Shown here: piece by piece, positions 8,831-26,244 of the stretch
Layout: each line of letters begins with the position of its first letter
How positions within the stretch are numbered: position 1 is the first letter of the stretch
Origin: Escherichia coli
GTDB lineage: Bacteria; Pseudomonadota; Gammaproteobacteria; Enterobacterales; Enterobacteriaceae
DNA: 64,000 nucleotides
Reading direction: 5' to 3' (one strand)
NCBI RefSeq assembly: GCF_044647545.1
Contig: NZ_CP172818.1
Notes under the pieces: model-generated
The model's input: the letters and a program-made list of their open reading frames with translations, nothing else
Told to the model about the DNA's origin: nothing
Databases searched by the model: none
Translations under genes and position numbers: made by a program

Positions 8831-9237
8831 GCCAGCTCGTCTACTTTTCCAGCAGCTCCGAAAATACGCAGCGTTTTATCGAACGTTTAGGGCTGCCCGC
8901 GGTGCGCATCCCGCTCAATGAGCGGGAACGGATTCAGGTAGACGAGCCTTACATCCTGATCGTGCCCTCTTACGGCGGCGGCGGTACGACTGGCGCGGTG
9001 CCACGACAGGTCATTCGCTTTTTAAACGACGAGCATAACCGGGCGTTGCTGCGCGGCGTTATTGCTTCGGGTAATCGCAACTTTGGTGAGGCATATGGCC
9101 GCGCCGGAGATGTGATTGCCCGGAAATGCGGCGTGCCGTGGCTGTACCGCTTTGAACTCATGGGTACGCAAAGCGATATCGAAAACGTTCGTAAAGGAGT
9201 AACCGAATTTTGGCAACGACAACCGCAGAACGCCTGA
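8827..9237 (+). CDS. nrdI: flavodoxin-like ribonucleotide reductase stimulatory protein NrdI
   Basis: ORF track 8827..9237, 136 aa; 4-bp overlap with nrdH. Confidence 0.96.
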
Positions 9238-11354
9238 CGCAGGAAACGATGGATTATCACGCTCTGAATGCGATGCTTAACCTTTACGATAGCGCAGGTC
9301 GCATTCAGTTCGATAAAGATCTCCAGGCAGTAGACGCCTTTATGACGACGCATGTGCGTCCGAACAGTGTGGCCTTCAGTAGCCAGCAGCAGCGCCTGAA
9401 CTGGCTGGTTAACGAAGGTTACTATGATGAAAGTGTCCTTAATCGCTACTCTCGCGATTTTGTCATTACGCTGTTTGCCCACGCGCACGCCAGCGGTTTT
9501 CGTTTCCAGACATTCCTCGGAGCATGGAAGTTTTACACCAGCTATACGTTGAAGACATTCGACGGTAAGCGTTATCTGGAAGATTTTGCCGATCGCGTCA
9601 CGATGGTGGCGCTGACGCTGGCACAAGGCGATGAAACACTGGCGACGCAGCTCACTGATGAGATGCTGTCAGGACGCTTTCAGCCAGCCACGCCAACATT
9701 CCTCAACTGCGGTAAGCAGCAGCGCGGCGAACTGGTTTCCTGTTTTCTGCTGCGTATTGAAGACAATATGGAGTCGATTGGCCGGGCAGTAAATTCCGCA
9801 CTACAACTGTCGAAACGCGGCGGCGGCGTAGCATTTTTGCTGTCGAATCTGCGGGAAGCGGGCGCGCCAATTAAACGTATTGAAAATCAATCTTCTGGCG
9901 TGATTCCGGTGATGAAAATGCTGGAAGACGCATTTTCCTATGCTAACCAACTCGGCGCGCGTCAGGGGGCTGGGGCAGTCTATTTACATGCTCATCATCC
10001 CGATATTCTGCGTTTTCTCGATACAAAACGGGAAAATGCCGACGAAAAAATCCGCATTAAAACACTGTCGCTGGGCGTGGTGATCCCGGATATCACTTTC
10101 CATCTGGCAAAAGAGAATGCGCAGATGGCGCTGTTTTCGCCTTATGACGTAGAGCGAGTTTATGGCAAACCGTTTGCCGATGTCGCCATCAGCGAACGCT
10201 ATGACGAACTGGTTGCCGATGAACGCATTCGCAAAAAATACCTCAACGCCCGTGATTTCTTCCAGCGACTGGCAGAGATCCAGTTTGAGTCTGGCTATCC
10301 GTACATCATGTATGAAGACACGGTTAACCGTGCTAACCCTATCGCCGGGCGCATAAATATGAGCAATCTCTGCTCAGAAATTTTGCAGGTTAACAGCGCC
10401 TCAGAATATGACGAGAATCTCGACTATGCTCGTACAGGCCATGATATTTCCTGCAATCTAGGGTCGTTGAATATTGCCCACACAATGGATTCCCCCGACT
10501 TTGCCCGCACGGTAGAGACTGCCGTACGCGGTTTAACGGCGGTGTCAGATATGAGTCATATCCGCAGCGTGCCGTCCATCGAAGCCGGAAATGCCGCCTC
10601 ACACGCCATCGGTCTGGGGCAGATGAATTTACACGGTTATCTGGCGCGAGAAGGCATCGCTTATGGTTCGCCGGAAGCACTGGATTTCACCAATCTCTAT
10701 TTCTATACCATCACCTGGCACGCACTGCGTACCTCGATGTTGCTGGCGCGCGAACGCGGTGAAACCTTCGCCGGGTTCAAACAGTCACGCTATGCCAGTG
10801 GTGAATATTTCAGCCAATATCTGCAAAGTAACTGGCAGCCGAAAACGGCGAAAGTTGGCGAACTGTTTGCCCGTAGTGGTATTACGTTACCTACCCGTGA
10901 GATGTGGGCGCAGCTGCGCGACGACGTGATGCGCTATGGCATATACAACCAGAATCTCCAGGCGGTGCCGCCAACCGGTTCTATCTCTTATATCAACCAT
11001 GCCACGTCGAGTATTCATCCGATTGTGGCGAAAGTAGAGATACGCAAAGAGGGCAAAACAGGACGCGTTTACTACCCTGCCCCGTTTATGACTAACGAAA
11101 ATCTGGCGCTGTATCAGGACGCTTACGAAATCGGCGCAGAAAAGATCATCGACACCTACGCGGAAGCGACTCGCCATGTCGATCAGGGGCTGTCGCTGAC
11201 GCTGTTTTTCCCCGATACCGCCACCACTCGCGATATCAACAAAGCGCAGATTTACGCCTGGCGCAAAGGTATCAAAACGCTCTATTACATCCGCCTGCGT
11301 CAGATGGCGCTGGAAGGCACTGAAATTGAAGGCTGCGTCTCCTGTGCACTTTAA
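9210..11354 (+). CDS. nrdE: class Ib ribonucleotide reductase alpha subunit
   Basis: ORF track 9210..11354, 714 aa; recognised NrdE. Confidence 0.96.
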
Positions 11355-12323
<969 letters not shown>

Positions 12324-12582
12324 GGGGGTTATTTTCAAAAATATCACTACCCGCTGCAGGGAAATAATTCCCGCCAAATAGCTTTATATCACGCAAATAA
12401 TTTGTGGTGATCTACACTGATACTCTGTTGCATTATTCGCCTGAAACCACAATATTCAGGCGTTTTTTTGCTATCTTTGACAAAAAATATCAACTTTTCT
12501 CGATTTGCTCTCAGCCCTTATATCATGGGAAATTCCGGCGATTTGCTCACATCAATATTCATGCCACATTTGCCATCAGGGG

Positions 12583-12610
12583 TTGCCTCAGATTCTCAGT
12601 ATGTTAGGGT
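12583..12610 (+). promoter_or_regulatory. osmotically induced proU promoter (sigma70-type -35 TTGCCT / -10 TAGGGT)
   Basis: TTGCCT at 12583-12588 and TAGGGT at 12605-12610, 16-bp spacer, about 70 bp upstream of proV; matches the described proU promoter (established knowledge). Confidence 0.6.
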
Positions 12611-12678
12611 AGAAAAAAGTGACTATTTCCATTGGGTAATGTATCGACATAAACAAATAACAGGAATCTTTCTATTGC

Positions 12679-13881
12679 ATGGCAATTAAATTAGAAATTA
12701 AAAATCTTTATAAAATATTTGGTGAGCATCCACAGCGAGCTTTCAAATATATCGAACAAGGACTTTCAAAAGAACAAATTCTGGAAAAAACTGGGCTATC
12801 GCTTGGCGTAAAAGACGCCAGTCTGGCCATTGAAGAAGGCGAGATATTTGTCATCATGGGATTATCCGGTTCGGGTAAATCCACAATGGTACGCCTTCTC
12901 AATCGCCTGATTGAACCCACCCGCGGGCAAGTGCTGATTGATGGTGTGGATATTGCCAAAATATCCGACGCCGAACTCCGTGAGGTGCGCAGAAAAAAGA
13001 TTGCGATGGTCTTCCAGTCCTTTGCCTTAATGCCGCATATGACCGTGCTGGACAATACTGCGTTCGGTATGGAATTGGCCGGAATTAATGCCGAAGAACG
13101 CCGGGAAAAAGCCCTTGATGCACTGCGTCAGGTCGGGCTAGAAAATTATGCCCACAGCTACCCGGATGAACTCTCTGGCGGGATGCGTCAACGTGTGGGA
13201 TTAGCCCGCGCGTTAGCGATTAATCCGGATATATTATTAATGGACGAAGCCTTCTCGGCGCTCGATCCATTAATTCGCACTGAGATGCAGGATGAGCTGG
13301 TAAAATTACAGGCGAAACATCAGCGCACCATTGTCTTTATTTCTCACGATCTCGACGAAGCTATGCGTATTGGTGACCGAATTGCCATTATGCAAAATGG
13401 TGAAGTGGTGCAGGTTGGTACACCGGATGAAATTCTTAATAATCCGGCGAATGATTATGTCCGTACCTTCTTCCGTGGCGTCGATATTAGTCAGGTATTC
13501 AGTGCGAAAGATATTGCTCGCCGGACACCGAACGGCTTAATTCGTAAAACCCCCGGCTTCGGCCCGCGTTCGGCACTGAAATTATTGCAGGATGAAGATC
13601 GCGAATATGGCTACGTCATCGAACGTGGTAATAAGTTTGTCGGCGCAGTGTCTATCGATTCGCTTAAAACCGCGTTAACGCAGCAGCAAGGTCTTGATGC
13701 GGCGCTGATTGATGCGCCGTTAGCGGTCGATGCACAAACGCCTCTTAGCGAGTTGCTCTCTCATGTCGGACAGGCACCCTGTGCGGTGCCCGTGGTCGAC
13801 GAGGACCAACAGTATGTCGGCATCATTTCGAAAGGAATGCTGCTGCGCGCTTTAGATCGTGAGGGGGTAAATAATGGCTGA
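12679..13881 (+). CDS. proV: glycine betaine/proline ABC transporter ATPase
   Basis: ORF track 12679..13881, 400 aa; Walker [10 protein letters not shown]; C-terminal CBS domains. Confidence 0.96.
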
Positions 13882-14938
13882 TCAAAATAATCCGTGGGAT
13901 ACCACGCCAGCGGCGGACAGTGCTGCACAATCCGCAGACGCCTGGGGTACACCGGCTGCTGCACCGACTGACGGCGGTGGTGCTGACTGGCTGACCAGTA
14001 CGCCTGCGCCAAACGTCGAGCATTTTAATATTCTCGATCCGTTCCATAAAACTCTGATCCCGCTCGACAGTTGGGTCACTGAAGGGATCGACTGGGTCGT
14101 TACCCATTTCCGTCCCGTCTTCCAGGGCGTGCGCGTTCCGGTTGATTATATCCTCAACGGTTTCCAGCAATTGCTGCTGGGTATGCCCGCGCCGGTGGCG
14201 ATTATCGTTTTCGCTCTCATCGCCTGGCAGATTTCCGGGGTCGGAATGGGCGTGGCGACGCTGGTTTCGCTGATTGCCATCGGCGCAATCGGTGCCTGGT
14301 CGCAGGCCATGGTTACCCTGGCGCTGGTGTTAACCGCCCTGCTGTTCTGTATCGTCATAGGTTTGCCGTTGGGGATCTGGCTGGCGAGAAGTCCGCGAGC
14401 GGCGAAAATTATTCGTCCACTGCTTGATGCCATGCAGACCACGCCCGCGTTTGTTTATCTGGTGCCAATCGTCATGCTGTTTGGTATCGGCAACGTGCCG
14501 GGCGTGGTGGTGACGATCATCTTTGCGCTGCCGCCGATTATCCGTCTGACGATTCTGGGAATTAACCAGGTTCCGGCGGATCTGATTGAAGCCTCGCGCT
14601 CATTCGGTGCCAGCCCGCGCCAGATGCTGTTCAAAGTTCAGTTACCGCTGGCGATGCCAACCATTATGGCGGGCGTTAACCAGACGCTGATGCTGGCCCT
14701 TTCTATGGTGGTCATCGCCTCGATGATTGCCGTCGGCGGGCTGGGTCAGATGGTACTTCGCGGTATCGGTCGTCTGGATATGGGGCTTGCCACCGTTGGC
14801 GGCGTCGGGATTGTGATCCTCGCCATTATCCTCGACCGCCTGACGCAGGCCGTTGGGCGCGACTCACGCAGTCGCGGCAACCGTAGATGGTACACCACTG
14901 GCCCTGTTGGTCTGCTGACCCGCCCATTCATTAAGTAA
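13874..14938 (+). CDS. proW: glycine betaine/proline ABC transporter permease
   Basis: ORF track 13874..14938, 354 aa; overlaps proV by 8 bp. Confidence 0.96.
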
Positions 14939-15994: not shown

Positions 15995-16076
15995 TCGGGC
16001 GGATAAGGCGTTTTTGCCTCATCCGCCGCTCTGTACACAATGCCTGATGCGACGCTGGTGCGTCTTATCATACCTA
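15995..16076. repeat. REP elements (two units) downstream of proX
   Basis: ttcgggcggataaggcg...catccgccg and gcctgatgcgacgctggtgcgtcttatca palindromes. Confidence 0.6.
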
Positions 16077-16178: not shown

Positions 16179-17363
16179 ATGACTAAACCTAATCATGAGC
16201 TTAGCCCGGCGCTGATCGTGCTGATGTCTATCGCCACCGGTCTGGCGGTAGCCAGTAACTATTACGCCCAGCCATTGCTCGACACCATCGCGCGTAACTT
16301 TTCCCTTTCCGCCAGTTCGGCAGGCTTTATTGTTACCGCCGCGCAGTTGGGCTATGCCGCAGGTCTGCTGTTTCTTGTTCCCCTCGGTGATATGTTTGAA
16401 CGCCGCCGCCTGATTGTCTCGATGACCTTACTGGCGGCAGGCGGCATGTTAATCACTGCCAGCAGTCAGTCGCTGGCGATGATGATCCTCGGTACGGCAT
16501 TAACCGGTTTATTCTCAGTCGTGGCACAAATTCTGGTTCCGCTGGCAGCGACGCTGGCTTCACCGGACAAACGCGGCAAAGTGGTCGGCACCATTATGAG
16601 CGGGCTGCTGTTGGGGATCTTGCTGGCACGGACCGTTGCCGGATTGCTGGCGAGTCTCGGTGGCTGGCGAACTGTCTTTTGGGTCGCTTCGGTATTAATG
16701 GCACTGATGGCGCTGGCGTTATGGCGTGGTCTGCCACAAATGAAATCAGAAACCCACCTCAACTACCCACAGTTGTTGGGTTCCGTTTTCAGCATGTTTA
16801 TCAGCAATAAGATCCTGCGCACCCGCGCGTTGCTGGGCTGCCTGACCTTTGCCAACTTCAGCATTCTCTGGACCTCAATGGCCTTTTTGCTTGCCGCTCC
16901 ACCTTTTAACTACAGCGATGGTGTAATTGGTCTGTTTGGGCTTGCGGGAGCTGCCGGAGCGTTGGGCGCTCGTCCGGCGGGCGGTTTTGCCGATAAGGGC
17001 AAATCACACCACACCACAACTTTCGGCCTGCTGCTGCTGTTACTTTCATGGCTGGCTATCTGGTTTGGACACACTTCTGTACTGGCGCTGGTTATCGGCA
17101 TCCTGGTGCTGGACCTCACCGTGCAGGGGGTGCACATCACTAACCAGACGGTAATTTATCGAATTTACCCCGATGCGCGTAATCGCCTGACTGCAGGTTA
17201 CATGACCAGCTACTTTATTGGCGGTGCTGCCGGTTCGCTAATTTCAGCCTCAGCCTGGCAACATGGCGGTTGGGCTGGCGTTTGTCTGGCTGGCGCGACG
17301 ATTGCCCTGGTTAACTTACTGGTCTGGTGGCGAGGTTTTCATCGTCAGGAAGCCGCAAATTAA
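16179..17363 (+). CDS. ygaY: MFS-family transporter, apparently intact 394-aa reading frame
   Basis: ORF track 16179..17363; about 12 predicted hydrophobic segments; position between proX and ygaZ. Confidence 0.85.
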   Translation: MTKPNHELSPALIVLMSIATGLAVASNYYAQPLLDTIARNFSLSASSAGFIVTAAQLGYAAGLLFLVPLGDMFERRRLIVSMTLLAAGGMLITASSQSLAMMILGTALTGLFSVVAQILVPLAATLASPDKRGKVVGTIMSGLLLGILLARTVAGLLASLGGWRTVFWVASVLMALMALALWRGLPQMKSETHLNYPQLLGSVFSMFISNKILRTRALLGCLTFANFSILWTSMAFLLAAPPFNYSDGVIGLFGLAGAAGALGARPAGGFADKGKSHHTTTFGLLLLLLSWLAIWFGHTSVLALVIGILVLDLTVQGVHITNQTVIYRIYPDARNRLTAGYMTSYFIGGAAGSLISASAWQHGGWAGVCLAGATIALVNLLVWWRGFHRQEAAN

Positions 17364-22671: not shown

Positions 22672-22744
22672 GAAAGACGCGCATTTGTTATCATCATCCC
22701 TGAATTCAGAGATGAAATTTTGGCCACTCACGAGTGGCCTTTTT
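22672..22744 (+). ncRNA. micA: MicA (SraD) Hfq-dependent small RNA
   Basis: gaaagacgcgcatttgttatcatcatccctgaattcagagatgaaattttggccactcacgagtggcctttt matches my recollection of the MicA sequence, with its own terminator hairpin ggccactc-acg-agtggcc + TTTT. Confidence 0.93.
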
Positions 22745-25652: not shown

Positions 25653-25729
25653 TGGTGCATCCGGGAGGATTCGAACCTCCGACCGCTCGGTTCGTAGCCG
25701 AGTACTCTATCCAGCTGAGCTACGGATGC
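25653..25729 (-). tRNA. argQ: tRNA-Arg (anticodon ACG)
   Basis: Reverse complement is GCATCCGTAGCTCAGCTGGATAGAGTACTCGGCTACGAACCGAGCGGTCGGAGGTTCGAATCCTCCCGGATGCACCA (77 nt, CCA encoded). Confidence 0.95.
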
Positions 25730-25792
25730 ATCGGGAAAATTTATTTTATTGCTGATATTGATACCGCTACTAAAGCCATATCAAGTAAGAGA

Positions 25793-25869
25793 TGGTGCAT
25801 CCGGGAGGATTCGAACCTCCGACCGCTCGGTTCGTAGCCGAGTACTCTATCCAGCTGAGCTACGGATGC
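25793..25869 (-). tRNA. argZ: tRNA-Arg (anticodon ACG)
   Basis: Identical 77-nt tRNA-Arg copy. Confidence 0.95.
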
Positions 25870-25931
25870 ATCGGGAAATTTATTTTACTGCTGATATTGA
25901 TACCGCCACTAAAGCTATATCAAGTAAGAGA

Positions 25932-26008
25932 TGGTGCATCCGGGAGGATTCGAACCTCCGACCGCTCGGTTCGTAGCCGAGTACTCTATCCAGCTGAGCT
26001 ACGGATGC
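25932..26008 (-). tRNA. argY: tRNA-Arg (anticodon ACG)
   Basis: Identical 77-nt tRNA-Arg copy. Confidence 0.95.
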
Positions 26009-26071
26009 ATCGGGAAACTTACTTTACTGCAGATTTTTTGATACCGCCACTAAAGCCGTATCAAGTAAGAA

Positions 26072-26148
26072 TGGTGCATCCGGGAGGATTCGAACCTCCG
26101 ACCGCTCGGTTCGTAGCCGAGTACTCTATCCAGCTGAGCTACGGATGC
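26072..26148 (-). tRNA. argV: tRNA-Arg (anticodon ACG)
   Basis: Identical 77-nt tRNA-Arg copy. Confidence 0.95.
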
Positions 26149-26151
26149 AAA

Positions 26152-26244
26152 TGGCGGTGAGGCGGGGATTCGAACCCCGGATGCAGCTTTTGACCGCATA
26201 CTCCCTTAGCAGGGGAGCGCCTTCAGCCTCTCGGCCACCTCACC
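26152..26244 (-). tRNA. serV: tRNA-Ser (anticodon GCU), long variable arm
   Basis: Reverse complement is GGTGAGGTGGCCGAGAGGCTGAAGGCGCTCCCCTGCTAAGGGAGTATGCGGTCAAAAGCTGCATCCGGGGTTCGAATCCCCGCCTCACCGCCA (93 nt). Confidence 0.95.

Follow-up and report, generated by a model that had tools for sequence, protein, structure and literature searches.

The nrdF–proV spacer of Escherichia coli as a proU control region: a weak but conserved promoter, H-NS silencing sites and conserved modules upstream

Introduction

What occupies the spacer between nrdF and proV in Escherichia coli, and do the two open reading frames called there by six-frame translation deserve to be treated as genes? The spacer lies in a 64-kb stretch of E. 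coli DNA (the window, by which we mean the whole stretch that was analysed), where nrdE, nrdF, proV, proW and proX follow one another on the plus strand, as judged from ORF order and translations. Osmotic gene control and H-NS silencing have a classic model in the proU operon (proVWX), whose control region is already known in detail. In the published model, a negative element (NRE) reaching about 1100 bp into proV contains an upstream and a downstream regulatory element (URE and DRE), and at low osmolarity H-NS, nucleated at two high-affinity DRE sites, forms bridges to the URE (Rashid et al., 2023, PMC10656529). Osmotic induction of the P2 promoter, through potassium glutamate and supercoiling, is known for K-12, where 60 bp separate the P2 start from proV (Rashid et al., 2023, PMC10656529). 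A further, sigma-S-dependent promoter, P1, has its start between map bases 1704 and 1705, which lies 190-191 bp upstream of the P2 start and 250 nt ahead of proV (PMC10656529, Suppl. Data 1A); its transcripts are ended by Rho under ordinary conditions, which makes P1 cryptic (PMC10656529).

A first-pass annotation had described the spacer as osmoregulated, H-NS-silenced promoter DNA, a reading which coincides with the published proU model (PMC10656529). We conclude with high confidence that 12324-12678 is a non-coding nrdF–proV spacer carrying the complete textbook control region of proU. Our own evidence consists of identity with K-12, conservation, composition, folding and covariation. The transcription starts, H-NS footprints, osmotic mechanism, Rho dependence and RNA 3′ end are derived from the literature, and the starts, H-NS occupancy and osmotic induction are carried over from K-12 and Salmonella. 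For conservation, one genome per species was scanned for the conserved N-terminal coding sequence of proV, which yielded 120 Enterobacterales loci.

The spacer and its composition

By direct reading, the nrdF stop codon (TGA) occupies 12321-12323 and the proV ATG begins at 12679, leaving 355 bp in between (Table 1). The proV gene is annotated at the same position in K-12 and in strain SK1144 (RefSeq). Of 5426 complete E. coli genomes, 5415 contain a match that covers 80% or more of the spacer, and in many, such as SK1144, the match is 100% identical. As the first-pass annotation had stated, these 355 bp are AT-rich: their GC content is 0.38 compared with 0.528 for the whole window, where 1.5% of all 355-bp segments are equally AT-rich. 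The AT-rich tract runs on into proV, with a GC content of 0.31 over 12600-12800 and 0.36 over 12679-12855. No Rfam family was found in 12200-13100 at gathering or permissive thresholds, the best matches having E values of at least 1.5.

Relative to K-12 MG1655, the spacer has 10 differences, two of which are 1-bp indels. It is identical base for base across 12550-12640 (-68 to +23 of P2) and also across 12387-12468 (-40 to +42 of P1), which allows the mapped P2 and P1 starts to be transferred to this strain. At both indels, 12496-12499 and 12661, K-12 is the outlier and other Escherichia species match the strain analysed here; the state at 12661 is found in Salmonella and Citrobacter as well.

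Table 1. Coordinates of genes, promoter elements, H-NS sites and RNA elements at the nrdF–proV locus (window positions; a dot marks features assigned to neither strand)
Feature	Position	Strand	Basis
nrdE	9210-11354	+	ORF list
nrdF	11364-12323	+	ORF list
URE (-229 to -47 relative to P2), curved DNA bound by H-NS	12389-12571	.	Coordinates converted from PMC10656529
Mechanical ORF, GTG start, 67 aa, judged non-coding	12404-12607	+	ORF list
Putative P1 sigma-S -10 element CTACACT (C at the -13-equivalent)	12412-12418	+	Within K-12-identical 12387-12468
P1 transcription start	between 12426/12427	+	Carried over from K-12 mapping via sequence identity
Hairpin CGCCUGAA / 9-nt loop / UUCAGGCG, then U7; intrinsic terminator-like	12438-12469	+	Folding, covariation, Term-seq
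Mechanical ORF, TTG start, 73 aa, judged non-coding; overlaps proV start	12468-12689	+	ORF list
Untranslated part of P1 transcript, rich in C and poor in G; candidate site for Rho loading	12470-12580	+	Composition
Conserved A-tract ACAAAAAATAT beside predicted bend	12481-12491	.	80-90% column conservation, 50 Enterobacteriaceae species
Conserved block GCTCAGCCCTTATATCAYGGG, ~108 bp upstream of P2 start	12508-12530	.	At least 90% conserved, 50 species
Downstream regulatory element (DRE), -40 to +177; H-NS silencer, P2 plus first 116 bp of proV	12578-12794	.	PMC10656529
P2 -35 hexamer TTGCCT	12583-12588	+	Direct reading
P2 extended -10: TG 12602-12603, T, TAGGGT 12605-12610	12602-12610	+	Direct reading
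P2 (sigma-70) transcription start, A	12618	+	Carried over from K-12 mapping
H-NS high-affinity site near +25, one mismatch: TCGATACATT instead of TCGATATATT	12638-12647	-	Motif scan, K-12 alignment
proV Shine-Dalgarno AGGA 12662-12665 and ATG 12679-12681	12662-12681	+	ACAGGAA at equal distance across genera
proV	12679-13881	+	ORF list
H-NS high-affinity site near +130, perfect TCGATATATT, proV codons 23-26	12746-12755	-	Motif scan
Long conserved mRNA hairpin in proV, published RNase III processing site	12819-12913	+	Folding, Term-seq
proW	13874-14938	+	ORF list

The P2 promoter

The hexamers TTGCCT and TAGGGT, which the first-pass annotation had placed at 12583-12610, were confirmed by direct reading; separated by a 16-nt spacer (CAGATTCTCAGTATGT), they are identical to those of the mapped K-12 P2 promoter. 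Comparison with the mapped proU starts carries the P2 start over to 12618. The DRE sequence, as published, opens with AGGGGTTGCC at -40, corresponding to window position 12578, which places +1 at A12618, and the published mutations at -3/-2 correspond to 12615-12616 (PMC10656529). The P2 leader therefore spans 12618-12678, which is 61 nt here versus 60 nt in K-12, the extra base being a C at 12661. Because K-12 is the outlier at this position, the 60-nt leader appears to be a K-12 peculiarity and 61 nt the ancestral length. The earlier description of a '355-bp leader' holds for the length and the AT-richness, but the term leader applies only to these 61 nt.

Judged against the sigma-70 consensus, P2 matches at only four of six positions in the -35 hexamer and three of six in the -10 hexamer. 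In the window, 494 sites match that consensus equally well or better, and 26 of them also carry a TG at -15/-14. By themselves, the P2 hexamers are statistically undistinctive, and the signal is conservation. P2 is a real promoter, as the first-pass annotation held, but what makes it 'recognisable' is the fame of its sequence rather than consensus strength. A generic promoter and terminator scan returned nothing in 12200-13000. This silence stems from the limits of the scan and not from an absence of elements, since P2 is too far from consensus and the loop of the upstream hairpin exceeds the 8-nt limit.

A 32-bp core, GGGTTG(T/C)C...T.TG.TAGGGTA, can be identified in 110 of the 120 species at a position of about -99 relative to the proV ATG, and its flanks are unalignable outside close relatives. 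The TTG of the -35 hexamer, the TG at -15/-14 and the T, G and T of the -10 hexamer are invariant in all 110, and GGGTTG is almost so. The -35 hexamer varies among TTGTCT (65 species), TTGTCA (34) and TTGCCT (10); the -10 hexamer is TAGGGT in 95 of the 110, and TACGGT marks the Erwinia/Pantoea group. These comparisons of sequence argue that selection keeps P2 as an extended -10 promoter with a G-rich -10 hexamer. In the published view, P2 melts poorly and depends on potassium glutamate and supercoiling (PMC10656529), and the retained TG together with the non-consensus TAGGGT is consistent with that view. Further, strong purifying selection on the G-rich -10 and the TG across Enterobacterales fits the idea that the weakness of the promoter is itself the osmosensor. 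The bases of the P2 spacer are unusually conserved for a spacer, and 12589-12601 form a near-palindrome, CTCAGATTCTCAG. As an operator, CTCAGA-N-TCTGAG was dropped, being perfect only in about one third of species and imperfect in E. coli.

H-NS sites, curvature and the silencing elements

The silencing element that had been expected inside the 5′ part of proV is supported by the DRE, which extends to +177, by the synonymous-site composition of the gene start and by a perfect TCGATATATT at 12746-12755. Third-position GC (GC3) is 0.17 in proV codons 1-40 and about 0.5 afterwards, which indicates that synonymous sites are held AT-rich. The site at 12746-12755 is the only perfect match to the H-NS motif in the window, where nine matches with at most one mismatch were found versus 2.7 expected. 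This +130 site, AAATATAT(C/T)GA, is kept across the aligned Enterobacteriaceae genera and is replaced in Yersinia, Photorhabdus, Proteus and Morganella.

At the +25 site, the mismatch results from an A-to-G change at 12641, which turns AATATATCGA into AATGTATCGA. In a diagnostic 55-mer search of 5426 complete genomes, 1959 (36%) had the G allele and 3448 the A allele of K-12. The base is A in other Escherichia species and in Citrobacter, so that G is derived. Of the two H-NS nucleation sites on which mechanistic work has relied, one is altered by a substitution in about a third of sequenced E. coli.

The published in-vitro H-NS DNase I footprints, in converted coordinates, fall at about 12419-12440, 12443-12471, 12477-12507, 12514-12542, 12553-12574 and 12579-12596. 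Curvature prediction, named in the first-pass annotation as a check, was positive: using a wedge model with literature parameters, the predicted bend reaches its maximum of 61 degrees per 30 bp at 12474; only one peak in the window is higher, and the value is above the 99th percentile. The mean predicted curvature of the spacer region is in the top 2.9% of 355-bp segments. The bend at 12474 falls in DNA for which both curvature and H-NS footprints have been published. Also among the highest predicted bends of the window is one at about 26388, which adjoins five clustered minus-strand tRNA genes (25656-26244), four of them with identical Rfam scores and a regular spacing of about 140 bp.

P1, the upstream hairpin and the C-rich stretch

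Two elements missed by the first-pass annotation lie upstream of P2, namely P1 (-10 element at 12412-12418) and a conserved hairpin and terminator at 12438-12469. CTACA(C/T)T is kept in 22 species at -253 to -267 from the proV ATG. The hairpin (12438-12462) has an 8-bp stem and a 9-nt loop and is followed by seven U residues up to 12469; it lies 115 nt past the nrdF stop and, with its U-tract, covers +12 to +43 of P1. Its folding energy is -14.5 kcal/mol (z = -5.4). Folding of the whole P1 leader (12427-12690) revealed no excess stability (z = +0.41), so that only the local hairpin is significant. Across 19 species the stem is 94.7% paired, with changes from G-C to A-U in six, and none of 500 shuffles reached its covariation score.

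The U-tract is encoded by T7 here versus T6 then C in K-12. Of the three growth conditions used for Term-seq of K-12, one yielded an RNA 3′ end at 2804606(+) (Adams et al., 2021, PMC7815308 Suppl. file 1), which corresponds to window position 12468, the last U of the K-12 tract; its distance from nrdF, above 50 nt, led to the class 'orphan' (PMC7815308). With a stem-loop, a directly following U-tract and, in K-12, an RNA 3′ end in that tract, the element has the features of an intrinsic terminator. In Salmonella and Citrobacter (loci L068, L053, L005 and others), a strong hairpin with a T-run stands directly after the nrdF stop, e.g. GGCAGGGGAAAT...ATTTCCCCTGCCATTATTTT (aligned to 12324-12375), and at this position Escherichia has only a short GGGAA/TTCCC remnant.

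Downstream of the hairpin, 12470-12580 has a C/G ratio of 1.75, in the top 2.3% of 111-nt segments, and a GC skew of -0.20 to -0.27. The C-richness of this stretch fits the reported Rho termination of P1 transcripts, and we infer from it a candidate position for the rut site. In Salmonella, P1 attenuation has reportedly been placed further downstream, at +63 to +84 of P1.

Conserved islands upstream of P2

When 50 Enterobacteriaceae loci were stacked, the block GCTCAGCCCTTATATCAYGGG stood at a fixed -167 to -170 from the proV ATG. Both this block and the A-tract ACAAAAAATAT are islands in otherwise diverged DNA, and both are inside published in-vitro H-NS footprints; the block has TATATC in common with the DRE nucleation sites. 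No assigned function was found for either island. Their position in H-NS footprints and the shared TATATC make an H-NS anchoring role in the URE the economical reading. The block was also compared by eye with the consensus sites of sigma-32, sigma-E, IHF and DnaA, and none was convincing. As a -10 element it was rejected on either strand, the T at -7 being missing or not conserved.

Alternative readings of the reading frames, the block and the hairpin

The two ORFs stand in the ORF list at 12404..12607 and 12468..12689, exactly where the first-pass annotation had given them, and its judgement that they lack ribosome-binding sites and are spurious is borne out. Both are present on the Rho-controlled P1 transcript, a typical setting for regulatory upstream ORFs, and one or both might encode a small protein, for instance a leader peptide read from the P1 transcript and linking Rho termination to translation. 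Yet neither starts with ATG, no Shine-Dalgarno sequence precedes GTG 12404 or TTG 12468, and the TTG sits inside the terminator U-tract. The frames do not persist between strains: owing to the two 1-bp indels, the GTG frame in K-12 continues into proV, giving a mechanical ORF of 491 aa, and a different ORF of 44 aa takes the place of the TTG frame. Among Escherichia species, the spacer measures 353-357 bp with length differences that are not multiples of three, and its conservation lies in short DNA or RNA islands and not along a reading frame. In addition, a Pfam search with both products gave nothing above threshold (the best was a sub-threshold chance match to Erv26, E = 0.043), and no gene is annotated in the spacer among the RefSeq matches listed. 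A small protein is hardly credible on this evidence; both ORFs are almost certainly spurious, accidents of an AT-rich spacer. The locus confirms the window as ordinary E. coli core genome, and six-frame calls in this spacer are to be ignored. For the block GCTCAGCCCTTATATCAYGGG, a sequence-specific factor other than H-NS might bind there and contribute to proU control, given that in 50 species it is at least 90% conserved and its distance from P2 is fixed, amid DNA that varies freely, and given G+C-rich flanks that are atypical for an H-NS site. However, the block falls inside an H-NS footprint published from in-vitro work and has TATATC in common with both nucleation sites of the DRE, and decades of proU genetics, as summarised in PMC10656529, have brought up no dedicated regulator. 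We therefore consider such a factor improbable and retain H-NS anchoring as the economical reading.

The hairpin is the point at which an alternative carries most weight. We infer that it is most likely the nrdHIEF terminator in Escherichia, doubling as an early block on P1 transcripts. It could instead belong mainly to P1, either as an attenuator that would turn P1 transcription into an RNA of about 42 nt or as a 5′ stem-loop that stabilises P1 transcripts. The distance between the hairpin and CTACACT is fixed in 22 species, the stem has undergone compensatory changes, and Salmonella and Citrobacter keep both the hairpin and its spacing despite the separate one directly after their nrdF stop. 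Further, the stem persists where the U-tract decays (Kosakonia, Trabulsiella), and in K-12 an RNA 3′ end falls on the U-tract. An RNA ending at 12468 could equally come from nrdF read-through, however, and Escherichia has no other terminator after nrdF. The literature ascribes the crypticity of P1 to Rho (PMC10656529), and no Rfam family matches the hairpin. A mainly P1-linked hairpin is thus a serious but doubtful alternative, and the terminator reading is preferred. More broadly, there are two upstream modules, the P1 -10 with the hairpin (12412-12469) and the A-tract with the block (12481-12530), and both are conserved, yet not obviously explained by the published proU model. It is conceivable, if rather unlikely, that at least one of them has a function of its own: P1 might chiefly make a short, terminated, sigma-S-dependent RNA of about 42 nt, or the block might be a sequence-specific anchor that sets the URE–DRE bridge, either for a new factor or as a third H-NS nucleation site.

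Further features in the window

Within proV, the hairpin at 12819-12913 folds at -40 kcal/mol (z = -4.4) and is near-invariant in nucleotide sequence across Enterobacterales. A Term-seq 3′ end at K-12 2805035, detected in all three conditions and scored as not Rho-dependent (PMC7815308), corresponds to window position 12899, inside this hairpin. PMC4067347 cites processing of proU mRNA by RNase III, with which the hairpin and its 3′ end at 12899 are consistent. An H-NS bridge has been reported between the proU DRE and ygaY (Rashid et al., 2023, PMC10656529); ygaY (16179-17363) is annotated as a pseudogene in K-12 and is an intact 394-aa MFS transporter ORF here. Directly downstream of proX, at 15997-16074, there is a match to Rfam naRNA4 (RF02564) whose score barely exceeds the gathering score; the sequence resembles a REP-type repeat. 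The MicA sRNA gene at 22672-22743 is a full-length Rfam match (83.9 bits).

A proposed mechanism and its implications

Carried over to this strain, the proU model would run as follows. Transcription of proVWX would start mainly at A12618 from a deliberately poor sigma-70 promoter, P2. At low osmolarity, H-NS would nucleate at the AT-rich sites near +25 and +130 and at the curved upstream element, spread, and bridge the URE (12389-12571) with the DRE (12578-12794), so that P2 would be silenced. Upon osmotic upshift, the rise in K+ would open the bridges, and P2, sensitive to potassium glutamate and supercoiling, would fire. The sigma-S promoter P1 (start at about 12426/7) would normally be unproductive, its untranslated C-rich transcript being ended before proV. 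The hairpin at 12438-12469 would end RNA, most likely terminating nrdHIEF and also stopping P1 transcripts early. The two conserved islands upstream of P2 offer cheap targets for mutagenesis in a well-instrumented system.

Comparison with known systems

The closest relative is proU of K-12, which shares the nrdF–proV locus, the hexamers, the 16-bp spacer, the curved upstream DNA, the AT-rich proV start and the +130 H-NS site. It differs at the 10 positions noted above, including the two 1-bp indels, A12641G in the +25 H-NS site and the U-tract, which is T6 then C in K-12.

The proU locus of Salmonella enterica has the same gene order, a spacer of 354-355 bp, the same P2 architecture with -10 TAGGGT and the P1 -10 CTACACT, as well as the hairpin, the A-tract, the conserved block and the ATATCGA sites. 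It differs in its -35 hexamer (TTGTCT), in compensatory changes in the hairpin stem, in the additional hairpin after the nrdF stop and in the sequence between the islands, which has diverged.

Among other promoters silenced by H-NS through upstream and intragenic elements, bgl, hdeAB and rrnB P1 resemble proU in having AT-rich curved DNA around the promoter, with H-NS nucleation followed by spreading or bridging (PMC10656529). Unlike these, proU is a core, vertically inherited operon and not foreign DNA, and, compared with other H-NS-silenced promoters, its silencer includes coding sequence that is AT-rich through its synonymous sites (GC3 0.17).
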